Assembly (NCBI GenBank): GCA_029777735.1
Contig: JAKORR010000405.1
Location: 1-31,744, forward strand
Origin: Armatimonadota bacterium
GTDB taxonomy: Bacteria > Armatimonadota > Zipacnadia > Zipacnadales > FEN-943
Direction: 5' to 3'
Length of the DNA stretch: 31,744 bases
Part shown: in pieces, positions 4,201 to 27,398 of the stretch
Layout of the letters: each line of letters starts with the position of its first letter
Numbering within the stretch: the stretch's first letter is position 1
Position numbers and translations under genes: made by a program
Notes under the pieces: model-generated
Told to the model about the DNA's origin: nothing
The model's input: the letters and a program-made list of their open reading frames with translations, nothing else
Database searches by the model: none

Positions 4201-4229
4201 TTGCTTAATGTAGTAAAATGAAATATAAT
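4201..4229 (+). promoter_or_regulatory. Sigma70-type promoter of the TA operon
   Basis: TTGCTT (4201-4206), 17 bp spacer, TATAAT (4224-4229), in an AT-rich patch. Confidence 0.75.
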
Positions 4230-4237
4230 GCATTATA
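4224..4237. promoter_or_regulatory. Perfect 14-bp palindromic operator overlapping the -10 box
   Basis: TATAATGCATTATA is its own reverse complement. Confidence 0.7.
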
Positions 4238-4260
4238 CTCCTTCGCAGGGCGTGATTGGC

Positions 4261-4581
4261 GTGGTGAAAAATTCATCTAGCGAAAAGTGGCTTCGTCCCA
4301 AGGAGGCAGCGACGTATCTGGGCATCTCCTTGAGCACCCTTTACTCCTGGCGCAAACGGGGCATCGTGCGATTCTACCGACTAGGACCGCGGGTTGTTGC
4401 ACTGCTGCGTGAGGATCTGGACCGGCTCGCGAGCCCGGCTTTGGCAGAAGAGGAAGGGCCAGAAGCCGTCGATACTATCTCAGCCCTGCGCGTCCTCCAC
4501 CAGCGCATGTACGAGCGCTACGGCGTCACCGAGGAGAGCACCGGCGTGATACGCCAGGCCCGGGAGGCCAGGGGACGGTGA
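4261..4581 (+). CDS. Putative antitoxin: excisionase/MerR-like (HTH_17) N-terminal domain plus VapB-like C-terminal tail
   Basis: KWLRPKEAATYLGISLSTLYSWRKRG..RFYRLG is an Xis-type wHTH. The tail ESTGVIRQAREARGR follows. The stop overlaps the PIN start (GTGA, 4578-4581). ATG 4228 lies inside the -10 box, so GTG 4261 or 4264 is preferred as the start. Confidence 0.75.
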   Translation: MVKNSSSEKWLRPKEAATYLGISLSTLYSWRKRGIVRFYRLGPRVVALLREDLDRLASPALAEEEGPEAVDTISALRVLHQRMYERYGVTEESTGVIRQAREARGR

Positions 4582-4994
4582 ATAGAGTCTGCGTGGATGC
4601 CTCAGTGGCGATAAAGTGGGTGGCGCCAGAACCGGGCAGTGACGCGGCCCTCGATCTGTTGGAGCAGTGGGGACCCCACGCTGAGCTGTGGGTGCCCGAT
4701 TTGTTCTTCGCCGAGTGCGCAAACGCACTGCGGCACAAGGCTGTTTATGGTCCGGTCAGCCCAGAGGACGCCCAGCAGATGCTGCAAGGGCTGCTTCAGA
4801 TCGAGTACCAGAGGGTCTCCGGGTGGGATGTGGCCGAGGAAGCACTGGATTTGGCTCTGCGGACTGGTCTCACCGTGTGGGATGCCTGCTACCTGGTTGT
4901 GGCGCGGCGTGTGGAGGCCGACTTGTGGACCGCAGACAAGACGCTGTACGAGCACGGGAGTCGGGCGCACGCTGCCGTGCGGCTTCTCGGGTAG
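4578..4994 (+). CDS. vapC: PIN-domain ribonuclease toxin (VapC family)
   Basis: 138 aa. The acidic tetrad is intact: VCVDASVAIKW, FAECANAL, TVWDACY, LWTADKTL. Confidence 0.9.
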   Translation: MNRVCVDASVAIKWVAPEPGSDAALDLLEQWGPHAELWVPDLFFAECANALRHKAVYGPVSPEDAQQMLQGLLQIEYQRVSGWDVAEEALDLALRTGLTVWDACYLVVARRVEADLWTADKTLYEHGSRAHAAVRLLG

Positions 4995-7680: not shown

Positions 7681-10600
7681 GTGACAGCGATGCGACTCCA
7701 GATCAACGGTGCAAGGGCCTCTGGACCCGCACGGTCCGTACCTTTTCTGCTTGCAATTGCCTGGCTGGCGGCCAACAGCGTGCTGGCTCAGCAGCCTACG
7801 GAAGGTCTGGTCGCCTACTGGCCCTTCGACGAGTTTAAGGACAAGGTCACTTCGGACGTTTCCGGACACGGCAACGACCTGATTGTCACTGCGTCTTTAC
7901 AAGTGAAGGGCGTGCGAAATACCGGCCTAGAGATGACGGAATTGGACTCCTCCGCGCGTTGCATCGTTTCGAGAGTCCAGCCCCCTGCCGAAGCCCTAAC
8001 CCTCGAGGCCTGGGTGAAACCTAGGGCCGTTGGCTTTGTGGACTATCCAACCATCATCCGCAAGGATAGCGCTTATGCCCTGCGTTTTGGTGGCACGCGC
8101 TTGGCCTTCCTTCTATGGTTCGAAGGCAAGCCTATCTATCTCGAGTCGGCGAAGACCGACTGGGTGGCAGACCAATGGTACCACCTAGCAGCGACCTACG
8201 ACGGCGCACAGATGAGGCTGTTCATAGACGGGGCAGAAGACAGTAACTCGCCTCGGGAACAGAAAGGGGCTGTGGACACGTCCCTGGACAACTGTGCCAT
8301 CGGCGCGGGTGCGGGAGGCGGGCGTTTCCGAGGAGTCATCGACGAAGTGCGCCTTTACCACCGCGCCCTGTCTCCCCAAGAGGTACAAGCCTCCTATGCG
8401 TTCGGGCGTCAGGCCCTGGAGGCCGAGCGGGATCGACGGTTTGAGCCCAAGCCCGTTGGGGTCGAACCGGTTGCTTTCCGCAAGCCAGCGAGGGACATAA
8501 AAATGATCGAGGACGGCTTTCTGTGGATTGACGCGGAGGACTTCAGCGACTACGGCGGCTGGCAACTGGACACGCAGTTTGTGCATTTGATGGGCTCAGC
8601 CTATCTCATCGCGGCAGGCGTCGGCACTCCGGTGAAGGATGCGACGCTGACGATTGATGTGCCCAAGGCGGGACGCTATCGGCTCTGGGTACGTGCCAAG
8701 AACTGGCTCAAGGACTACTCACCGGGCCAGTTCCGCGTGCTGGTCGGTGACAGGCTGACGGAAAAGGTTTTCGGCGCCGCGCCGAGCGAAGAGTGGCTAT
8801 GGGAGTCGGGCGGCGAGTTTGATTTGGAGCAGGGCGAGGTACAAATCGCGCTCCGCGACCTGACGGGCTATTTTGCCCGTTGTGACGCGGTAGTGCTAAC
8901 GACCGACCTGAGCTACACGCCGCCGTCGAAGATGGATGAGCTTCAGGTAGAGTGTAGGCGGCTCACAGGGCTGCCGCTGGAGCCAGAACTGGTAGGCGAG
9001 TTTGACGTGGTTGTGGTGGGAGCGGGCGTTGCGGGCTGCTGTGCAGCCGTGGCTGCGGCCCGCGGCGGTGCCAAAACCGCGCTTATCCAGAACCGGCCAG
9101 TATTGGGCGGGAATGCGAGCTCCGAGATAGGCGTGGGTGTCAATGGCGCGGCCAGTGGTCACCCGAACGCACGCGAGAGCGGCATCGTCGAGGAGATCGG
9201 GCGCATAAAGGCTCGCTTCGGCTACCGTGGCTGGAGCGAAGCCCTGCGGATGGTGACCGAACAGGAAAGGAACCTGACAGTCTTTGTCAACCAACACGTC
9301 GTCGCCGTGGAGATGGCCAACGCGCAGCACATCGCCTCGGTGAAGGCCGTTGATACCCTCACCGGAGGCTTTTCGGTGTACCGTGGAAGGGTGTTCCTCG
9401 ACTGTACGGGGGACGGATGGATCGGGTACTACGCGGGGGCTCAGTATCGGTTTGGGCGAGAGCCGCGCGACGAGTTTGGAGAGAGCCTAGCGCCAGAGAA
9501 ATCTGACCAGATAACGATGAGCGGCTGTCTGATGGGCGAGCACGGCCTGGCCTTCCGTTCGCAGGACACAGGCAAGCCTGTCCAGTACCTTCCGCCTCCC
9601 TGGGCACCGAAGTTCCCGTCGGCCGAGGAGTTCGGGCGCAACATCAGGTACTTCACGGGCGGCGAGTGGTGGTTGGAGCACCAAGGCACTATCGACGACC
9701 TCTGGGATGCCGAGAAGGCCCGCGATGAGCTGATTCGCATTAGCTTTGGCTATTGGGACTACATCAAGAACGTCTGGCCCGAGCGACAGCTGGCAGCCAA
9801 CTACGCCATGGTGTACGTGCCCTATCTAGACGCCAAGCGCGAGTCGCGCCGCTTGGTGGGCGACTACATCCTGACGCAAAACGATGTGCAGAAGGCTGTG
9901 GTCTTCCCTGACCGCATCTCCTATGGTGGCTGGCCACTGGACGTGCACCACCCCGAGGGTATCTACTCGGGCAAGGAAGGGCCCTACCATTGCACTCCGC
10001 CAGTACCTCTCTACACTATTCCCTATCGCTGCCTGTATTCGGTCAACATCGACAATCTTCTGTTCGCGGGTCGCCATGTCAGCGTCACGCACATTGCGCT
10101 GGGCACGGTGCGGGTGCAGGGCACTCTCGCCACCCTGGGGCAGGCCGCAGGGACGGCTGCGGCAATGTGCCTCAGGTATGGCACGACTCCTCGCGGCATT
10201 TATCAGCAGCACCTGAAGGAGCTACAGCAGACGTTGGTCAAGGACGACCAGTACATTCCAGGGGTGGTGAACGAGGATCCGAAGGACCTGGCACGGCGGG
10301 CCAGGCTCAGCGCCTCGAGTTCAGGCGACCACGAAGAGTTCGGCAAGGCCCAGGTGCAGAAGGACGAGTTGCACCCGATGTCCACCTGCCGAGCGATGAT
10401 GTTCCCGCGGGGCGAGAACCGGCGGCTTGGATCTGTGTACTTGCTACTGGCATCGAGTCTGGAGACACCCGTGCCTGTGACCCTCCACATCCGTGAGGCC
10501 CAGAGCTGTGACGATTTCTCTTTGCCCAGGGATATTGCGACCGTCAAGACGGAGGTACCACCTGGTCAGGAATCTTGGGTGGAGTTCAAGGTGGGCCGCG

Positions 10601-11172
10601 AGGTTGAGATGCCCTTCCTTTGGGTCTGGCTGGAGCCGGCGAAGGGTTTGTCCTGGCGAAGGATGGCCACGGCGCCCCTGGGCGCTCGACGGGCGTGGGG
10701 CCAAGAGGGCGACTGGCATGTTGTGGCGAACCAGTATTACGCTTTCTATACCGAGCCAGCGCTGGCACTAAAGACCGACTTCGCCGTGGAGAACCTCACC
10801 AACGGCGTCACACGGATCGTTGACACTCACTCCAACCTGTGGGCCTCGGATCCGACCAAGCCCCTGCCCCAGTGGGTGGAGCTGGCCTGGGACACTCCCG
10901 TTGAGATCAACTCCGTCTACCTGACCTTCGATACCGACATGAACGCCGCTTACCACAACGTGCCAGTTGTGGCCCAGTGCGTCAGGGACTATGAGGTGGC
11001 CTACCACGACGGCAGCGAGTGGGTGACCGTAGCGTCAGTAGAGGGCAACTTCCAGCGACGACGCGTACACCGTTTTGCGCCGGTGAGTACTTCGCGGCTG
11101 CGACTGACGATACTGGCCACCAACGGCGCCAAGTCTGCTAGAGTCTTCGAGATCCGCGTGTACAAGGAATAG
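7681..11172 (+). CDS. Secreted multidomain protein: LamG/concanavalin-like + beta-sandwich + FAD-dependent oxidoreductase (FAD_oxidored-like) + C-terminal F5/8/discoidin-like domain
   Basis: 1163 aa. Signal-like segment FLLAIAWLAANSVLAQQ. LamG motifs LVAYWPFDE, WYHLAATYDG and IDEVRLY. FAD motif DVVVVGAGVAGCCAAVAAARGG...RPVLGGNAS, plus FLDCTGDG and LLFAGRHVS. Tail PQWVEL...VEGNFQRRRVHRF..VSTSRLRL..ARVFEIRVY. ATG 7690 is an alternative start. Confidence 0.85.
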   Translation: MTAMRLQINGARASGPARSVPFLLAIAWLAANSVLAQQPTEGLVAYWPFDEFKDKVTSDVSGHGNDLIVTASLQVKGVRNTGLEMTELDSSARCIVSRVQPPAEALTLEAWVKPRAVGFVDYPTIIRKDSAYALRFGGTRLAFLLWFEGKPIYLESAKTDWVADQWYHLAATYDGAQMRLFIDGAEDSNSPREQKGAVDTSLDNCAIGAGAGGGRFRGVIDEVRLYHRALSPQEVQASYAFGRQALEAERDRRFEPKPVGVEPVAFRKPARDIKMIEDGFLWIDAEDFSDYGGWQLDTQFVHLMGSAYLIAAGVGTPVKDATLTIDVPKAGRYRLWVRAKNWLKDYSPGQFRVLVGDRLTEKVFGAAPSEEWLWESGGEFDLEQGEVQIALRDLTGYFARCDAVVLTTDLSYTPPSKMDELQVECRRLTGLPLEPELVGEFDVVVVGAGVAGCCAAVAAARGGAKTALIQNRPVLGGNASSEIGVGVNGAASGHPNARESGIVEEIGRIKARFGYRGWSEALRMVTEQERNLTVFVNQHVVAVEMANAQHIASVKAVDTLTGGFSVYRGRVFLDCTGDGWIGYYAGAQYRFGREPRDEFGESLAPEKSDQITMSGCLMGEHGLAFRSQDTGKPVQYLPPPWAPKFPSAEEFGRNIRYFTGGEWWLEHQGTIDDLWDAEKARDELIRISFGYWDYIKNVWPERQLAANYAMVYVPYLDAKRESRRLVGDYILTQNDVQKAVVFPDRISYGGWPLDVHHPEGIYSGKEGPYHCTPPVPLYTIPYRCLYSVNIDNLLFAGRHVSVTHIALGTVRVQGTLATLGQAAGTAAAMCLRYGTTPRGIYQQHLKELQQTLVKDDQYIPGVVNEDPKDLARRARLSASSSGDHEEFGKAQVQKDELHPMSTCRAMMFPRGENRRLGSVYLLLASSLETPVPVTLHIREAQSCDDFSLPRDIATVKTEVPPGQESWVEFKVGREVEMPFLWVWLEPAKGLSWRRMATAPLGARRAWGQEGDWHVVANQYYAFYTEPALALKTDFAVENLTNGVTRIVDTHSNLWASDPTKPLPQWVELAWDTPVEINSVYLTFDTDMNAAYHNVPVVAQCVRDYEVAYHDGSEWVTVASVEGNFQRRRVHRFAPVSTSRLRLTILATNGAKSARVFEIRVYKE

Positions 11173-14704: not shown

Positions 14705-14810
14705 GACAGCCTCTGGCACGTGCTCGGCGGTAAGTCATCGTCCCTAAAGGGTGTAGTTTCCTCCTTCCTGTATGCGGGTAATCTAGTATGCTAGAGAGAA
14801 GGTGAATACG

Positions 14811-15320
14811 ATGAGGAAGCACCTGATGATAGCGACTTTGGCGGTTGGGGTCTCCCTCTTCCTGGGAGGCGCGACGACCACAAGCCGAGCACAAGTGTTG
14901 CTGCCTCACAACAACATACAAGTGCCCGGCACTTGGTCCGAAATTCCGTCGATACCTGGGCCCAACACTCCCGGCCAGCGCTACCTGACCCCTCCAGTGG
15001 GACCGCGGTTCCCCTCGCCCCCTGCCGGTTACCGGGGTGACTTCCCACTCTTTGGGCCCAGCCAACCGCGTCTGCTTCCCGACAGGTCCTACTTCAACCC
15101 CCTCGGCCCCGAGTACTTCGAACCCTATCCGACCCAGCGCGTGAGGCCCTGGCACCGGTACTACAGCGACAGGAACGAGAACTGGGAAATCATCGACCGC
15201 TGGAGCCGCTGGCACCCAGACTGGCCGTACAGCGAGTGGCAGTTCGGGCGCATTGAGCGCAACTCGGACGTCCACCGGCGACTGCAAGAACGGCTTGAAA
15301 GGGCGCGCCCGGCGCCGTGA
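14811..15320 (+). CDS. Secreted proline/aromatic-rich hypothetical protein
   Basis: ATG 14811 after GAAGG (GTG 14802 is the alternative). Signal-peptide-like MRKHLMIATLAVGVSLFLGGATTTSRA. The mature part is rich in P, R, W and Y. Confidence 0.6.
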   Translation: MRKHLMIATLAVGVSLFLGGATTTSRAQVLLPHNNIQVPGTWSEIPSIPGPNTPGQRYLTPPVGPRFPSPPAGYRGDFPLFGPSQPRLLPDRSYFNPLGPEYFEPYPTQRVRPWHRYYSDRNENWEIIDRWSRWHPDWPYSEWQFGRIERNSDVHRRLQERLERARPAP

Positions 15321-15447: not shown

Positions 15448-17166
15448 CTATCTGCGCTGCGCAAGTCTGAGCTTCGTGGCGTCTTCGCCACCGTTGAGCA
15501 GGTAAAGGAGCGGCATGGGCCTGTCCACGCCTTCAATGAAGCGCGGGCGCTGCGCCCAGGGAGTGACCGAGAGGACGTTGGCCAAGTCCATCCAGTACTC
15601 GAGCCTAGCTGGCTTGAGCCCCCACGTCATATGAAAGTGGTTCGCGGGAGCAAACTGCTTGTACTCAGTCATACTGGCATACCGGGGCACAACCCAGGTG
15701 TGGGGCCAGACAGGCGTGGACGTCGCTGCCACGGCCTGGGCCAGCTTCTCCGGCATCTCTGTTGTCACTGCCTCGTCCCAAACTAGCGAGAAAATGTTGT
15801 TGATGGCACTATAGGCCATACGCCCGGCCACACCCTCGATACCTGCCGGCGAAAAGAAGCTCACGCAGTTGCCGCCGCCAGGGAAGTAAAAGTCCTCTGC
15901 AAAAGGCATCGACACGCGCGCCATAATCTCCTCGATGCTGGAGCCTGGGGGAGCCGCCCAGTCCAGCGAGGCGCTGCCCGAGTTGTCGCCGTCCACGAAA
16001 CCCTTTGTGCGCCACAGACCATCCGGATCTACATCCCCCAGCCCCAGCTCCTTCGCCTTTGCCTCGATCTCCCACGGCTCCCACACCTTGCGGAAGTCCA
16101 TGAATAGCGGCGGGTTGCCACCCGTCAGCCACGTGAAGAACAGCATGGTCAACAGGCCCTGAACGTCCGCCTCTGTCGCAAAGGGCAGTGGGGGCTTCCG
16201 CCCCTTGTGGTCGAAGGTCGAGTTGAGCAGCGACTCCATTATGTCCGCCACGGGCAGCGGTATTCCCCGGCGGTCGGAACCCCACTCAAGCTGGTTCATG
16301 AACCCGCCTCCGACGGCATTCAGATCCGTCAGCAGGTCGCGGACGATGAGGTATACACCCAGGCCTTGATTTAGACGCTCTCCGTCGGCCTCATCGCGCA
16401 ACTCCAGACGGTCGCCAAGATGACCCTCCAGCCAGGCGCGTAGTTCTCGCAGCTCCTCTGCGTCATAGGCCCCCTTCTTCAGCATGTCCGCCAGCAGCTT
16501 CATGTCCAGCCGCGTGATCTCAAGGCCGAAGATGGTCCGCGTGGGTATGATGTGCGCAAGAGCCGTTTCCATGCCCATGCTGTCATGCCCAAAGATCACA
16601 ACTCGACGACCCTTCAAGCCCACCCGCGTTACCGCGGCGTAAGCCCAGTCTACCAGTGCCTCAGCCGTGGACTCCGTCATGACTGGCTTCTGCCCCGTAT
16701 CCGGCCACGTACCAACATTGATGTGCACCATCCGACCACACTGGCTGAGGGCTCCGTTAGCTGCATGCACAAACACTACGCCGGGCTTCGGCCCGCTGTT
16801 CCCGCACGTCAGATTGATCGGTGTGTCCTCGGGAAACTGACTCAGCAGCGAGATGAGGCCCAACTGTGGGAAGGCCCAGGTGTCAGGTACGCAGACGAAG
16901 ATGTTTGCCCCCGCGGCCTCGAACTGCCTCGCCACCATGTCGGCCTCCCTCTCCCCGTCCACAAGTATGGGCGAGTAGACGACGGGCACCAGCGTACCGT
17001 CCGGGAGCTTCACGCGCTCAGCCAAGATGTCGGCCGTCATTTCCACGATGTTCACGCACCGCTGGCGCGATACCTCATCGACCCTCGGATCTCCTGTGGC
17101 GAACACGCCGATGGTCGGGAGCTTGGCAACTGCAGGCTGGCTTTCTGGTAGTCTCTTTGCGCTCAC
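15448..17166 (-). CDS. fucI: L-fucose/D-arabinose isomerase family protein
   Basis: GTG at 17166 with AAGGAG upstream (ORF-track start 17232 is over-extended), about 572 aa. LPTIGV...GHDSMGMET. Metal ligands equivalent to FucI Glu/Asp/His occur in ATEADVQG, FMDFRKVW and NHFHM. The sequence is divergent, so the substrate is uncertain. Confidence 0.8.
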   Translation of the reverse strand: MSAKRLPESQPAVAKLPTIGVFATGDPRVDEVSRQRCVNIVEMTADILAERVKLPDGTLVPVVYSPILVDGEREADMVARQFEAAGANIFVCVPDTWAFPQLGLISLLSQFPEDTPINLTCGNSGPKPGVVFVHAANGALSQCGRMVHINVGTWPDTGQKPVMTESTAEALVDWAYAAVTRVGLKGRRVVIFGHDSMGMETALAHIIPTRTIFGLEITRLDMKLLADMLKKGAYDAEELRELRAWLEGHLGDRLELRDEADGERLNQGLGVYLIVRDLLTDLNAVGGGFMNQLEWGSDRRGIPLPVADIMESLLNSTFDHKGRKPPLPFATEADVQGLLTMLFFTWLTGGNPPLFMDFRKVWEPWEIEAKAKELGLGDVDPDGLWRTKGFVDGDNSGSASLDWAAPPGSSIEEIMARVSMPFAEDFYFPGGGNCVSFFSPAGIEGVAGRMAYSAINNIFSLVWDEAVTTEMPEKLAQAVAATSTPVWPHTWVVPRYASMTEYKQFAPANHFHMTWGLKPARLEYWMDLANVLSVTPWAQRPRFIEGVDRPMPLLYLLNGGEDATKLRLAQRR

Positions 17167-17528
17167 GGCTATACGCTCCTTTGGCTCTAAGGGCTCGACG
17201 GGCAACCTCTGGCCAGCCTGCGGCGTGACCAAGGGGCCCGGAGTCCGGAATCGCAGATAAGCATGCTATGGTTCGCCTCGGCAGGGGTATCCTCCTTCCC
17301 CGCCGCCCACGGCAAGAACCATGCTGAAGCAGACTCCGGATCCCGTCATGATATGCCTCCACGCCACTGACTCCACCAAGGAGACAACACCAACCGGGAG
17401 AACAAACCCTCAATCAAGACCAACGTGCGGCTGAGCACGGGGCCAACCGAAAGAGCGGCAGGACACCTGCCCCTACCCCACAGTGCCCAAACGCCGCGCC
17501 CGAGTAGCTACAGGAGACTGGAGCATCC

Positions 17529-18905
17529 ATGAACCTCATCTGTATCATGCTGGATAGCTTTCGGCAGGACCACGTGGGTGTCTATCACCAGGGCAAGCAG
17601 CCCTTTGACTGCCTTCCGGCTTGCAACACCCCCAACCTCGACCGGTTCGCCGAGAGCGCCGTCGTGCTGGACAACTGCTACCCTGACGGCCTCCCCACAA
17701 TCCCCGTACGCACTTGCCTGATGACCGGGCAGCGCACTCTTTCCTTCAGGCCCTGGCAGCCTCTCACTGCCGAGGACGTCACCGTAGCCGACTTCCTCCG
17801 CGGCGAGGGCTACGTATGCGGGATTATCTCGGATTGCTACCACTACCGCGCGCCGGGGATGAATTTCCACCGCAACTACAACTGCTACCGGTGGATCCGT
17901 GGCCAGGAGTACGACCCCTACGTCAGCTCGCCCACGAAGCGCAACGTAGACGACTACGTCAACGACAACTACGACGAGCAGTGGCGCGGCCGTGTGGCGC
18001 AGTTCTTGGCGAATACCGACGACTTCAAACAGGAAAGCGACTGGTTCCCGGCTCAGGTCACTGAACAGTCGGTGGAATGGCTGCGCGCCAACCGGGTGCA
18101 CAAGAATCTGTTCCTCTGGATCGACTACTTCGAACCCCACGAGCCCTGGGACCCGCCCGTTCGCTTTGATACCTACACCGACCCCAACTACACCGGCAAG
18201 CGCCTCATCCTGCCTATGGGCGGACTAGCGAGCGAGTGGGCCAAGGAGGATGAGATACGTTATATCCAGGGCCTTTATGCCGGAGAGGCAGCCTTTGTGG
18301 ACCATAATTTGGGTCCCCTGTTCGAAACCCTCGAGGCCGAAGGCTACTACGAGGACAGCATCATCTTCGTCATAGCCGACCACGGCCACCCGCTGGCCGA
18401 CCACGGCAAGTTCCTCAAGGGGCCGGACCGAATGTATAGCGAGCTTCTAAAGGTTCCCTTCATCGTGCGTCTACCCAGCGGCAGGAACGGCGGTCTGCGT
18501 AGCTCTGCTCTCCTCCAGTTCCAGGACGTCCTCCCCACCATGCTCGACCTCATGGGCTTGGGCAACAATATCTCGTCCATGCACGGCAAGAGCTTCCGCT
18601 CCGTCCTCGAAGGCGACGCGCAGCACTTCCATACCAGTATCATCACTGGCTTCAAGGAGGGCGTTGACCGCTGCATCCGTGATGAGACATGGAGCTACGT
18701 CTCTCGGCCGGCTAACGAGCCTGACGAACTCTATAATCTGGTCGAGGACCCGCGCGAAACCAACAACCTAATCGACGAACACCCGGCAGAAGCTCTACGG
18801 CTCGCCTCTGCCTTTGGTAGCTACTTTCGTAGGCGCGGGAGTGGCCCCACACCCGTGAAGGGCGTGCAAGGCAAGTACGAAATGGCCTCGGGAAGCGTGG
18901 ACTAA
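17529..18905 (+). CDS. Cytoplasmic sulfatase-like hydrolase (alkaline phosphatase superfamily) with TxPxR motif
   Basis: MLDSFRQD, TPNLDRFA, PTIPVRTCLMTG, PHEPWDPP, ADHG, KVPFIVRLP and DELYNLVEDPRETNNL. No signal peptide. Confidence 0.85.
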   Translation: MNLICIMLDSFRQDHVGVYHQGKQPFDCLPACNTPNLDRFAESAVVLDNCYPDGLPTIPVRTCLMTGQRTLSFRPWQPLTAEDVTVADFLRGEGYVCGIISDCYHYRAPGMNFHRNYNCYRWIRGQEYDPYVSSPTKRNVDDYVNDNYDEQWRGRVAQFLANTDDFKQESDWFPAQVTEQSVEWLRANRVHKNLFLWIDYFEPHEPWDPPVRFDTYTDPNYTGKRLILPMGGLASEWAKEDEIRYIQGLYAGEAAFVDHNLGPLFETLEAEGYYEDSIIFVIADHGHPLADHGKFLKGPDRMYSELLKVPFIVRLPSGRNGGLRSSALLQFQDVLPTMLDLMGLGNNISSMHGKSFRSVLEGDAQHFHTSIITGFKEGVDRCIRDETWSYVSRPANEPDELYNLVEDPRETNNLIDEHPAEALRLASAFGSYFRRRGSGPTPVKGVQGKYEMASGSVD

Positions 18906-19188: not shown

Positions 19189-19968
19189 TCACGCGCCCCA
19201 ACGTCTTTCGATTTCGGCCGCGCAGCGTTTGAGCCCGTCGAGTATCTGAGTCGGTCGGGGTGAGGCGAACCGCACCGCTGGCACGGTGACGCCCAGCGCC
19301 GCGACGACACGTCCCAGCGGGTCCCGCAGCGGCACTGCCAGGGCGCACACACCAGCAGCGGCTTCCTCTCGCGTGACGGCATAGCCCTGTGTGCGCACGC
19401 CTTCAAGTTCCCGGCGGATGTCTTCGAGGGAGGTTAGGCTCCGAGGAGCCCTCTGGCGCAGGTCCAGCCGTGCCAGGAGGGCCTCACGTCGGTCCTCAGG
19501 TAGATGCGCCAGGAGCACCTTACCTGTCGCCATTACATGCGGCTCATCGCGGCTTTCCAGGCCGTGGGACACGGAGAGGGCCTGGTCAGCGTGTATTTCG
19601 AGAAGGCCTAACACGCGGTCGCCACGCAGCTCACCCAGATAGACAGTCTCATTGAGCAGGCGGGCCAGAGTAGCCATCGGTGCCCTGGCGAGGGTTACCC
19701 GATCGCACCGTGACAGCCACCTCTGCGACAGCTTATGCACCTGTGGTCCGAGCTGATAAGGTCCGCCGCGTTCAGGTTGAAAGACCAGTTCGTGTCGCTC
19801 AAGCGACCGCAGGAGGGTCTGCGCCGTCTGTGGCTTGACCCCTAGGGCCGCGGCCAGGTCGCCCAGACCCAGGCCCACGGGTTGGTCGGCGAGTAGTTCG
19901 AGCACTCGCGCGGCCCGGTCTACGGTACTCAGCCCCTTCACCTCTCCCCTGCCGGTTCTGGTGCTCAT
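19189..19968 (-). CDS. IclR family transcriptional regulator
   Basis: ATG 19968 after GGAGG. STVDRAARVLELL...LAAALGVKPQTAQTLLRSL HTH, and ATGKVLLA...VRTQGYAV...GVCALAVPL effector domain. Confidence 0.93.
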   Translation of the reverse strand: MSTRTGRGEVKGLSTVDRAARVLELLADQPVGLGLGDLAAALGVKPQTAQTLLRSLERHELVFQPERGGPYQLGPQVHKLSQRWLSRCDRVTLARAPMATLARLLNETVYLGELRGDRVLGLLEIHADQALSVSHGLESRDEPHVMATGKVLLAHLPEDRREALLARLDLRQRAPRSLTSLEDIRRELEGVRTQGYAVTREEAAAGVCALAVPLRDPLGRVVAALGVTVPAVRFASPRPTQILDGLKRCAAEIERRWGA

Positions 19969-20059: not shown

Positions 20060-21073
20060 ATGATCACCGCGCAGCAGGTCAAGGACTACGCCAGGCAGTG
20101 CGGCGCCGACCTCGTCGGAATAGGCGATGTTCAGCGCTTCGAGGGTGCTCCGCCGGGCTTTGATCCCCGCTATATCTTCCCCGAGGCGAAGGTCCTCATC
20201 GGTTTTGCCTTCCGCATCCCGCGCGGCTATCTCCGCGGCATCGAAGAGGGGACGCACTTCTACCAGTATCCGGCTCTGGGATATTCGAGCATCAACGAAG
20301 TCTATGCGCCATCGGTGCTGCGCGAAGTAGCGTGTATGGTGGAGGATCACGGCTACGAGGGTGTAGCCCTACGCAACTATGGCTGCAACAGCATCGTGTC
20401 GGACATGACCGGCGACCCAGAGGAGCCTGCGGAGTACGGCCGACGCCTGCGATACTCACGCGCGGTGAGGCCCAACCAGCCGCCCCCGGACGTCTTTCTG
20501 CATTTCCGTATAGGCGCGTACATCTGCGGTCTGGGTGAGATAGGCCACAGCAAGGTGTTCATCACGCCTGAATATGGCCCACGTCAACGCTTCGCCTTCA
20601 TGCTGACGGACGCCCCTTTGGAACCGGATCCTATCTACGAGGGCCCGACGCTGTGCGATCGGTGTATGAGTTGCGTGGCGGAGTGCCCGATAGGGGCCAT
20701 CAGCGCGGATGAGCTCGTGACAATCAACGTCGAGGGGCACGAAGTCCAGTGGGGAAAATTAGACGAGTGGCAATGTTTCTGGGCCTACTGGAGCGGGCTG
20801 GCGGAAGTGAATCCGTTCCTACCGCCGGACGCTTTTGCGGATCTGCCGGATGGAGACAAGATCCTCAGAGGGGAACGGAAGCTGACGCCCCAAGAAGTGT
20901 GTGAGGTGCATCGGCGTCTAAGGGCCTTCTACCCGTCACCGGGGGGCTATGGGCCGGCCATGTGTGGGGGGAGGGGATGTATCCGGGCCTGCATGGTGCA
21001 TCTGGAGGAACGCGGTGTACTCAAGCAGCACTTCGAGGGCCCCTTCCGCAAACGCCGCCCTTGGTGGCACTAG
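20060..21073 (+). CDS. Epoxyqueuosine reductase / reductive dehalogenase-like Fe-S protein (probably cobalamin-binding)
   Basis: VKDYARQCGADLVGIG, GLGEIGHSKVFITPEYGPRQRFAFMLTDAPLEPD, CDRCMSCVAECPIGAI and CGGRGCIRAC. ATG 20048 is an alternative start. Confidence 0.75.
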   Translation: MITAQQVKDYARQCGADLVGIGDVQRFEGAPPGFDPRYIFPEAKVLIGFAFRIPRGYLRGIEEGTHFYQYPALGYSSINEVYAPSVLREVACMVEDHGYEGVALRNYGCNSIVSDMTGDPEEPAEYGRRLRYSRAVRPNQPPPDVFLHFRIGAYICGLGEIGHSKVFITPEYGPRQRFAFMLTDAPLEPDPIYEGPTLCDRCMSCVAECPIGAISADELVTINVEGHEVQWGKLDEWQCFWAYWSGLAEVNPFLPPDAFADLPDGDKILRGERKLTPQEVCEVHRRLRAFYPSPGGYGPAMCGGRGCIRACMVHLEERGVLKQHFEGPFRKRRPWWH

Positions 21074-22568: not shown

Positions 22569-23792
22569 TCAGGCGTATCGCTCGGCGAGGTCGATAGCCA
22601 ACCGCGCCCACTCGCGCAGGCGCTGGGGATGGCCAGCCAAGGTCTCGATCTCGCGCAGGACGATCTGGTAGTGACAGCCCTGGAGCTTTCGCAGGCCCTC
22701 ATCCAGGTGTGCGCGGATGGGTTCGAGGTCGTCGGAGAGGATGACGGTGGCAGCATGCTGGCGCCACATGATGGTGTAGCGTCTCCCGCAGGCCTCGAGG
22801 ACGCGATCGAGGTCGGTCCACGCTGAGCAGACGAAGATGCGCAGGTTCGGGATGCGCAGGACGATACTGATTTTCTGCGTGAGGTCCTCGCAGCAGCCGT
22901 ACTGCACGGCGCCGTACTGCTGTAGCAGGGGGATCTGGTAGTTGAGGAGGAACTCCTCCTGCATTCGCGGGGAGACCATCTGGAACTCCTGGCTGTTGGC
23001 GGCGACCCAGAGGTGGTGGAGGCGGATTCTACCGTTGGGAGGCGCGCCGTTGACAGGGTCGCTGCAGAACATGGGCTCGTGGTGGTTGGTGGTGAGCAGG
23101 CCCGTGTCCTCGGCGACTCGTTGGGCGCGCAGGACGCTCTCGGTGAGCTTGGCCATGGCCCGATGGATCAGGTGAGGGTGGAAGGCGAGGTCATCGAGCA
23201 TGGCTGCCATGCCGCGGAGCTGGTCGAGATAAACGCTGAGGTGAGGACCTAAGGGCGGCTGGCAGACGAGGCGCACGGGCATCACATCGGCGAGCAGGTC
23301 GTGCATCTTGGCGAGGGCGTCATCGGTGCGAGCCGCGTTGTAGGTGTAGGTAGGGACAGTGATACGTTCGTAGTCCGCCTCGGTCTTGATGGGTGGATCA
23401 TAGCGAAAGCCGCCGAGGTGAGTAGAGCCGATCAGGTGGCCGGTAGGCAGGCCCCAGGGGTGGGGGCTGTCACACTTCCAGACTGCGGCGACGTCCCACC
23501 AGGGTTCGACGATGTGGTCGTCGCCTACCCAGTCCTTGTACAGGTGCTGGCGCAGCGTGTACTCGACGCCACGGCAGAGGGTGTCGGTGCACTGAAGCGA
23601 CTCGGGGGGGAGCAGCTCCTTCCACGCACCAGCTGGTCGGCACCAGACAGGCGCGCGATCGGACTTGCGGCGCTCGTTGGCGTTGCGCCAGCGCCTGCGG
23701 CGGGCTTCGTACTCGTCGCTGGTGGCGAGGGCCATGACTCGGTGAGCTAGCTCGCGGACGATTGTGACGTCGTGAGATGGAAAGGACGGCAT
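22569..23792 (-). CDS. Uroporphyrinogen decarboxylase / methyltransferase (URO-D-like) superfamily hypothetical protein
   Basis: ATG 23792 after GGGAGAG. NSQEFQMVSPRMQEEFLLNYQIPLL..YG..QYGCCEDL...IPNLR matches the pattern I associate with URO-D-like TIM barrels of unknown function. Confidence 0.55.
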   Translation of the reverse strand: MPSFPSHDVTIVRELAHRVMALATSDEYEARRRRWRNANERRKSDRAPVWCRPAGAWKELLPPESLQCTDTLCRGVEYTLRQHLYKDWVGDDHIVEPWWDVAAVWKCDSPHPWGLPTGHLIGSTHLGGFRYDPPIKTEADYERITVPTYTYNAARTDDALAKMHDLLADVMPVRLVCQPPLGPHLSVYLDQLRGMAAMLDDLAFHPHLIHRAMAKLTESVLRAQRVAEDTGLLTTNHHEPMFCSDPVNGAPPNGRIRLHHLWVAANSQEFQMVSPRMQEEFLLNYQIPLLQQYGAVQYGCCEDLTQKISIVLRIPNLRIFVCSAWTDLDRVLEACGRRYTIMWRQHAATVILSDDLEPIRAHLDEGLRKLQGCHYQIVLREIETLAGHPQRLREWARLAIDLAERYA

Positions 23793-26006: not shown

Positions 26007-26081
26007 CCGGGGCCAGAGAGCGACAGCCTGTCTGAGCTGCCGTTACCTAGGGCAAAACGCAAACCTAGGAGAGGATGGTTG

Positions 26082-27398
26082 ATGTACGCACTGGATACGC
26101 AAGCAGTCTTCATGATGGACAGAGTACAGGCGGATGCTCAGGCGCTGGCGCGCGTGGAGAGGATGCTGGATGCGCTGGGGATGGGGCGAGAGGAGGTGCA
26201 GGTAATTTCCGACGACGACCTGCCGGAGGTCATCGCGGAGCGCGAATGGCACCGGGCGTGGGTCCGCCAGGGGCGTCTGAAGGAGGCCAAGCCTCATACC
26301 TTGGTCTTCAACGCCCTAAACTTTGACGGGCGTGAGGAGCGGGTGGATGAGTTGCGGAGAGCCTGTCCCGAGGGCACGGGTGAGAACCTGTGCCGGTCGC
26401 TGCTGGGCTATGTGAGGTGTGATGCCCTGGCCCACCCACGAAAGCATGACCAGCGCCAGGATTGTGTCTGCTGGTCGGAGCACGAGTTTGTGACCATCGA
26501 GGGCTGCCCACACCGTTGCCGGTACTGCGGTTGTGGTCAGCTTCTCAACGTGATGACGAACCTGGAGGAGTTTGCGGAGCGGGTGGTGGCGCCGACCCTG
26601 GCCGAGCACGAGTGGCAGAAGTGCTTTCGCTGCAACACGACGGCGAGTGACACGCTGTGCTTTGAGCCGGAGTATGGTCTGCACCGGATCTTGACGGACG
26701 TCTGCGCGGACTTTGGCGACCGGTATCTGTACGTGCACTCGAAGAGCGCCAACGTGGACTTCATCGAGGATCTTCCGCACCGCGAGCACCTCATCGGGTC
26801 GTGGAGCCTTACGTCGCAGCCGGTAAGCATCGAGATGGAGGCGGGGGCGGCTACAGCCCTGGAGCGGCTGGAAGCGGGGCGCAAGTTTCAGGCGATGGGG
26901 TTGTCGGTGCGGTTCAAGTTCAAACCTGTGATTCCCGTGCGCGGATGGCGCGAGCAGTACGCGGAGATCATCGCTGAGATGTTTCGGATAACGCAGCCGG
27001 AGGCTGTGGGCTTTTGCGTGCTGATGTGGATGGGGGTTGAGGACATGCTGTCGACCTTCCCGCCGGATAGCCTGGATCCGGAGTACGTGACAGCGGCAGT
27101 AGCGGCGGCCGAGGAGATGAAGGGCAAAATGGTAGGGCCCTTCCCGCATGAGGTGCGGTCGGAGATTTACCGCTACCTCATCGAGCAGGTGCGTCTCCAC
27201 GACAAGCATGTGCCGCTGTTCATCTCGACGGAATCGCGGGAGATGTGGGACGAGCTGGGGCCACTGATGGGCGCGAACCCGGGCAGGTTCCAGTGTGGCT
27301 GTGGACCGATTTGCGTGCCGGGAGCGCGGTTGGTTGGGCGGCAGACGTCAACATACCTGCCGGACGAGCACGTTGATTCCAACCAGATGGAGGCATGA
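26082..27398 (+). CDS. Spore-photoproduct-lyase-like radical SAM protein
   Basis: GCPHRCRYC (CxxxCxxC), ASDTLCFEP, VHSKSANVD, SWSL..Q....EME...ERLEAGRK and RFKFKPVIP follow the SplB-family layout. C-terminal CGCG motif. Confidence 0.75.
   Translation: MYALDTQAVFMMDRVQADAQALARVERMLDALGMGREEVQVISDDDLPEVIAEREWHRAWVRQGRLKEAKPHTLVFNALNFDGREERVDELRRACPEGTGENLCRSLLGYVRCDALAHPRKHDQRQDCVCWSEHEFVTIEGCPHRCRYCGCGQLLNVMTNLEEFAERVVAPTLAEHEWQKCFRCNTTASDTLCFEPEYGLHRILTDVCADFGDRYLYVHSKSANVDFIEDLPHREHLIGSWSLTSQPVSIEMEAGAATALERLEAGRKFQAMGLSVRFKFKPVIPVRGWREQYAEIIAEMFRITQPEAVGFCVLMWMGVEDMLSTFPPDSLDPEYVTAAVAAAEEMKGKMVGPFPHEVRSEIYRYLIEQVRLHDKHVPLFISTESREMWDELGPLMGANPGRFQCGCGPICVPGARLVGRQTSTYLPDEHVDSNQMEA

Follow-up and report, generated by a model that had tools for sequence, protein, structure and literature searches.

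S1 sulfatases carry the signature C/S-x-P-x-R, in which Cys or Ser is the precursor of formylglycine, together with a G-K-x-H motif that includes the sulfate-binding lysine (LysA) and a first metal site whose second position (Asp/Gln) is 76% conserved. In choline sulfatase, kcat/KM is 4.8e3 for the unaltered enzyme; it falls below 7.5e-5 on removal of LysA (K102L) and to 1.19 with the C54S substitution (PMC5870055). The phosphonate monoester hydrolases (PMHs), which are phosphodiesterases and phosphonate esterases, lack LysA (PMC5488252); Ser mutants of the AS/PMH enzymes still have measurable sulfatase activity, on average about tenfold lower (PMC5488252), and a hydroxyl nucleophile is therefore compatible with sulfatase activity. 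Phosphate esters are the substrates of the Thr-nucleophile proteins YejM, LtaS, and EptA (PMC7576196), action on phosphate esters has been described for Thr enzymes of the sulfatase fold (PMC3249071), and it has already been published that Thr-bearing PF00884 proteins of the T-x-N-x-E (LtaS-like) group are not sulfatases.

The gene described here encodes an enzyme of this fold with Thr at the formylglycine position. It lies in a window of 31,744 nucleotides (the whole stretch of DNA that was analysed) from a metagenome-assembled Armatimonadota genome, the closest loci to which come from Armatimonadia and Zipacnadia. The gene and the residues that matter to the argument are as follows.

17520..17523, plus strand: GGAG ribosome-binding site, 5 nt upstream of the ATG, read directly
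17529..18905, plus strand: Thr-type sulfatase-fold enzyme, intact open reading frame of 458 aa (PF00884, E 4.7e-33; PF16347)
17553..17558, plus strand: Asp9-Ser10, first metal site, with Asp9 as ligand (D9 120/120; position 10 S115/T5)
17697..17711, plus strand: Thr57-x-Pro59-x-Arg61 at the formylglycine signature, Thr57 being the putative nucleophile (T, P, and R each 120/120)
17715..17717, plus strand: Cys63, non-conserved and no candidate nucleophile (Q71, E20, C13, A12 of 120)
17832..17843, plus strand: Asp102-Cys103-Tyr104-His105 in place of the sulfatase K-W-H, in a register derived from sequence profiles with a one-residue insertion
18138..18140, plus strand: His204 (HisB), predicted leaving-group acid, in D/E-P-H-E-P-W (152/152)
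18378..18383, plus strand: Asp284-His285, metal ligands (152/152 and 151/152)
18417..18419, plus strand: Lys297 (LysB; 120/120 orthologues, 128/131 Thr-type members)

Codon 57 is ACA (17697-17699) and is read in an intact frame within the motif P56-T57-I-P59-V-R61-T-C63-L-M-T-G67, as the earlier note had described. The identical 458-aa protein is recorded on 58 contigs from independent runs, which rules out a sequencing or assembly error. The gene is probably monocistronic, and a promoter scan gave no signal above chance. The protein starts at its first core strand, as do most orthologues, in which an N-terminal extension is absent, and it has no signal peptide or transmembrane segment (highest 19-residue hydropathy 0.96); the enzyme is predicted to be cytoplasmic.

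Conservation was assessed in the 120 best homologues (64-85% identical; Armatimonadota, Chloroflexota, Latescibacterota, and Bathyarchaeia), taken as the orthologue set. D9, T57, P59, R61, D102, H105, H204, H285, and K297 are present in all 120 and D284 in 119, so that T57 is no mutation peculiar to this gene. An orthologue 64.6% identical to the protein is encoded by the cultured Chthonomonas calidirosea (WP_016482260.1; UniProt S0ETD5). In solved sulfatases the residue aligned with T57 is the Cys/Ser nucleophile, and profile-profile alignment (probability 100%) sets T57 on the Cys of canonical sulfatases from the same genome and from related Armatimonadota. The profile alignment also pairs Asp102 with LysA, His105 with HisA, H204 with HisB, D284/H285 with the metal ligands, and K297 with LysB. 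Oxidation of Thr would yield a ketone and not formylglycine (PMC5066984), which backs the earlier reading of an enzyme independent of maturation.

A profile search returned 4,986 50%-clusters at E below 1e-30, and the 150 top representatives, which were inspected, are mostly Thr-type. The wider clade set, assembled from top representatives and a few added sequences, holds 131 Thr-type members (mostly 50%-cluster representatives, with sampling biased towards the query) and 10 Cys-type members. D-S/T, R61, H204, D284, and H285 are common to all of these, and W76, D102, and K297 are kept by nearly all; Asp102 occurs in 126 of the 131 Thr-types, and Pro59 and His105, present in 10/10 Cys-types, are found in 112/131 and 101/131 Thr-types. 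Additional invariant acidic residues (D102, D129, and E205) run through the clade. The protein carries the entire motif set of the clade (D-S/T, T-x-x-x-R, W76, D102, R-G-x-E-x-D, P-H-E-P, D-H-G, and K297, with no His103), and this catalytic set, conserved across a large clade, marks the gene as a typical member, by sequence, of an uncharacterised Thr-type D/E-P-H-E-P clade: real, but ordinary. A D-S pair in place of D-D at the first metal site had been noted previously and is present (D9-S10). Ser or Thr at the second position extends throughout the clade and to the Cys-type sisters (S5/T5 at position 10), so the pair is uninformative about Thr and not linked to it.

The Cys-type sisters (P-C-x-P-A-R-R; Rhizobium, Neorhizobium, Halomontanus, and others), of which Rhizobium WP_020053069.1 is one, are 28-32% identical to the protein. 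They share D-S/T, D102, R-G-x-E, P-H-E-P, D-H-G, and K297 with it and differ by Cys57 and His103; all 10 Cys-types have His103, as against 1 of the 131 Thr-types. In a subgroup of 14 Cys- and Thr-type members, only 57 and 103 among 458 columns separate the two types; an independent-pairs test of the Cys/His103 link found agreement in 2/2 pairs (p 0.5), with too few contrasts to have power. The clade, which we take to resemble CDD cd16148 ("sulfatase-like"), is supported at 100/99 against canonical sulfatases. When the tree is rooted on the latter, the Cys/His subgroup falls within the Thr clade behind two branches supported at 98/98 and 100/99, and Thr members are found inside that subgroup; monophyly of the Thr-types came close to rejection in an AU test but was not rejected (p 0.051). 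The best tree does not place Thr57 of this gene as a recent change out of the Cys/His subgroup. The pattern could reflect a two-position switch in chemistry (Thr57 without His103, Cys57 with it), meaning either that formylglycine dependence re-arose within a Thr-based clade and was repeatedly reverted or that maturation-free Thr sulfatases exist, a reading we regard as speculative; no example of the latter was found in the literature searched. No characterised Cys-type sister was found, and the acesulfame sulfatase of Shinella, considered for that place, was rejected because it is described as a canonical C-x-P-x-R enzyme.

An AlphaFold2 model of the protein (pLDDT 91) has its best structural matches among S1 sulfatases and PMHs (Z 31-36), with 9koq and 2vqr as the top Foldseek matches; no solved structure closer than about 26% identity was found. 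Arg, HisB, and LysB are all in place on the sulfatase fold. S1 sulfatases (6hhm S1_7, 7oz8 S1_46, 9koq, and the choline sulfatase BetC) resemble the protein in overall fold, C-terminal domain included (Z 34-36; about 390 residues aligned at an rmsd of about 2.9 Å; 20-24% identity), and in the metal ligands, Arg, HisA, HisB, and LysB, but where they have Cys/Ser, LysA, and a second Asp/Gln, the protein has Thr, Asp, and Ser: T57-I-P-V-R offers no Cys/Ser precursor, which makes maturation impossible, S-D102-C-Y-H105 replaces G-K-x-H, and D9, D284, and H285 are retained as metal ligands beside a second-position Ser. The SpAS-RlPMH group (2vqr, 2w8s, 4uph, and 4upl) is likewise among the top Foldseek matches, and SpAS2 is the top match of the clade profile. 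PMHs and the protein are alike in an Asp...Asp-His single-metal site, the absence of LysA, and a cytoplasmic location; PMHs (S1_0), however, have formylglycine derived from Cys, Tyr at LysA, and Asp/Thr at HisA, whereas the protein has Thr57, Asp102, and His105, and its PehA NCBIfam score is 95 bits against a cut-off of 900.

LtaS, YejM (PbgA), and EptA-MCR have a sulfatase-like fold (Z 21-28; YejM up to 31) and a Thr nucleophile that needs no modification, but they are membrane-anchored and extracytoplasmic, lack T-x-P-x-R, and are 11-18% identical to the protein, which is unanchored, has no N-terminal membrane domain, and scores 24.5 against an LtaS NCBIfam cut-off of 970. NPP/PafA enzymes and phosphonoacetate hydrolase share the superfamily core and the Thr nucleophile with the protein; NPP and PafA match it less well (Z 20-22, about 255-275 residues aligned), and PF01663 reaches only 23.9 bits on it, with no passing stretch. 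NPP/PafA-type enzymes are bimetallic, with a second-metal His in place of LysB; the protein keeps LysB as the invariant K297. The likeness to NPP and phosphonoacetate hydrolases proposed in the earlier note is thus not borne out: in the first model the top sulfatase scored Z 33.6, YejM/LtaS 25-28, and NPP/PafA 20-22, and Lys297, not a second-metal His, occupies the LysB position. Retention of Lys297 argues for a single-metal site and, given the fold matches and the kept D9/D284/H285/K297, the active site is predicted to be single-metal and sulfatase/PMH-like, not NPP-like. Judged on these sequence features, the protein is not a member of the S1 sulfatases, the PMHs, the NPPs, or the LtaS-type transferases.

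The invariant catalytic core argues that the enzyme is most likely active. The earlier reading of a maturation-independent hydrolase mislabelled as a sulfatase remains the most likely one, favoured by that core, by Thr57, and by Asp102 at LysA, with the activity itself a prediction. Asp102, which the earlier note had not remarked on, points away from sulfatase activity; both positions altered in the choline sulfatase experiments, K102 and C54, are changed in the protein. The enzyme most likely works, by analogy, like a PMH that dispenses with formylglycine. More specifically, we propose, with about as much confidence as doubt, that it hydrolyses phosphodiesters or phosphonate monoesters through a phospho-Thr intermediate. 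Asp9, Asp284, His285, and Thr57 would occupy the metal site, as sequence and fold indicate; the metal-bound Thr57 hydroxyl would attack a small mono-anionic phosphodiester or phosphonate monoester at phosphorus, the leaving alcohol would take its proton from His204/Lys297, and water would hydrolyse the phospho-Thr intermediate, since Thr cannot undergo the hemiacetal elimination of formylglycine enzymes. High identity across phyla suggests that the substrate may be one specific small metabolite. Several observations run against this proposal: His105 (HisA) is invariant in the orthologues and is Asp/Thr in PMHs, Ser mutants of AS/PMH enzymes keep sulfatase activity, 15 of the 20 orthologue-bearing genomes checked encode an anSME, and the gene neighbourhoods give no consistent phosphate-ester signal.

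Thr57 might instead form a phospho-enzyme that acts on a soluble metabolite, either in hydrolysis of a phosphomonoester or in transfer of a phospho-group to an alcohol as in LtaS/EptA or a mutase. Transferases and a phosphatase do occur among Thr enzymes of the sulfatase fold (YejM and LtaS at Z 25-31), and orthologues adjoin an inositol monophosphatase gene (L011/L013), a histidine phosphatase gene (L134), or gpsA (Chthonomonas); these neighbours, however, recur within single lineages only, a membrane anchor and an acceptor-binding domain are absent, and Asp102 in place of a cationic residue would disfavour a dianion. We consider this unlikely, though worth keeping in view. We find it improbable that the enzyme is a true sulfate-ester hydrolase or sulfotransferase with an unmodified Thr57, in which a sulfo-Thr would be cleared by water or passed to an acceptor. 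In its favour, sulfatases are the closest structures, activity survives in Ser variants of AS/PMH enzymes, His105, His204, Arg61, and Lys297 are retained, FGE/anSME-compatible Cys-type members belong to the same clade, and the window is rich in glycan-degradation genes. Against it, Asp stands in place of LysA, which in choline sulfatase contributes more than 10 kcal/mol, His103 goes with Cys and is missing with Thr, the literature searched yielded no sulfatase that relies on Thr, and the glycan context is not conserved. It is very doubtful that Thr57 is a metal ligand or structural residue only, with direct attack by a metal-bound water, another bond type as target, or a non-catalytic binding role; the T302A substitution costs YejM only about 70% of activity (PMC7576196) and the acidic D102, D129, and E205 are extra invariant residues, yet the whole catalytic set of the superfamily is conserved across the sampled 50%-clusters and Thr and Cys interchange exactly at the nucleophile position. 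That a nearby Cys becomes the formylglycine nucleophile is scarcely credible, even with an anSME encoded in the genome and Cys32 (which precedes a structural T-P-N-L-D helix) in 120/120 close orthologues, because the residue that the earlier note numbered 62 and offered as a possible nucleophile is Cys63 and is present in only 13/120 homologues, Cys32 lies outside the invariant columns of the wider clade, neither is in a C-x-P-x-R motif, and T57 fills the nucleophile column.

Besides this gene, the genome encodes three Thr members of the clade, of which two are broken in this assembly, as well as about eight Cys-type sulfatases and an anSME that exceeds the cut-off. The broken paralogues lie at G000:C357:7862-9406, with an in-frame TGA at C357:8498-8500, and at G000:C391:11755-13139, with a frame change. 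Two further proteins, without Arg61 and Lys297, belong to a separate Thr family (G000:C515:1063-2382 and G000:C685:1784-3121; also in L139, L142, and L146) that has a P-T-T/H/F-P/S motif, is His-rich in place of LysB, occurs in several copies per Armatimonadota genome, and is possibly two-metal. In one 99%-complete genome (G037) that carries the orthologue, all PF00884 proteins are Thr-type and neither FGE nor anSME exceeds the cut-off, which fits maturation independence. An anSME occurs in 15 of the 20 orthologue-bearing genomes checked, and G037 alone is without both enzymes; a correlation between the Thr-type orthologue and the absence of maturation enzymes was considered and is unsupported statistically.

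The genes flanking the Thr-type gene in the window are as follows.

15448..17166, minus strand: L-fucose-isomerase-like gene, divergent, adjacent only in the closest relatives, L001, L133, and L135 (81-83% identical)
19189..19968, minus strand: IclR regulator, convergent, the link being absent in other loci

Comparison of neighbourhoods (127 loci clustered, about 130 overall) found no neighbour family that recurs between lineages; the 148 nearest non-redundant neighbours match 160 Pfam families, none more than four times. In Anaerolineae the orthologue occurs with a GH116, a Gfo/Idh/MocA oxidoreductase, and an IMPase or PTE-family gene, in Chthonomonas it precedes gpsA, and in Bathyarchaeia it stands alone. 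Links to GH116, IMPase, PTE, gpsA, and FucI are lineage-limited, and assignment of a substrate from the gene neighbourhood was rejected; the "substituted sugars" suggested earlier drew on this window only and are left without support because the neighbourhood is not conserved across the loci compared. Elsewhere in the window lie a QueG/reductive-dehalogenase-like Fe-S protein (20060-21073, plus strand), with a 74% identical copy close to the L133 orthologue; overlapping HTH_17 and PIN-domain genes that resemble a VapBC toxin-antitoxin pair with an excisionase-type HTH partner (4228-4994, plus strand); a radical SAM protein (26079-27398, plus strand) that resembles spore photoproduct lyase but scores far under the equivalog cut-off; a 1163-aa protein with LamG, golvesin-like, FAD-oxidoreductase, and galactose-binding domains (7681-11172, plus strand); and two called genes without a Pfam match (22569-23792, minus strand, 407 aa; 14802-15320, plus strand, about 164 aa).

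Neither a paper on the T-x-P-x-R clade nor a close solved structure was found in the literature and structures searched, and those homologues that have names go under "sulfatase" or "arylsulfatase A-like." For this enzyme the label is probably wrong, and it is probably a phosphate-ester hydrolase instead. Because Thr-type homologues are labelled in this way, inferences of sulfated-glycan metabolism from the number of sulfatases probably start from inflated counts; of the roughly 17 sulfatase-like genes in this genome, at least six are Thr-type. On rhizobial plasmids, Cys-type sisters (L130:7001-8515 and 9566-11080; L128:7001-8494) lie beside a LysR regulator and sugar ABC transporters and offer a tractable system for finding the substrate of the clade. 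The co-occurrence of Cys/His103 and Thr sisters in one clade makes the need for formylglycine directly testable and, likewise, the moves of the superfamily between sulfate and phosphate esters.
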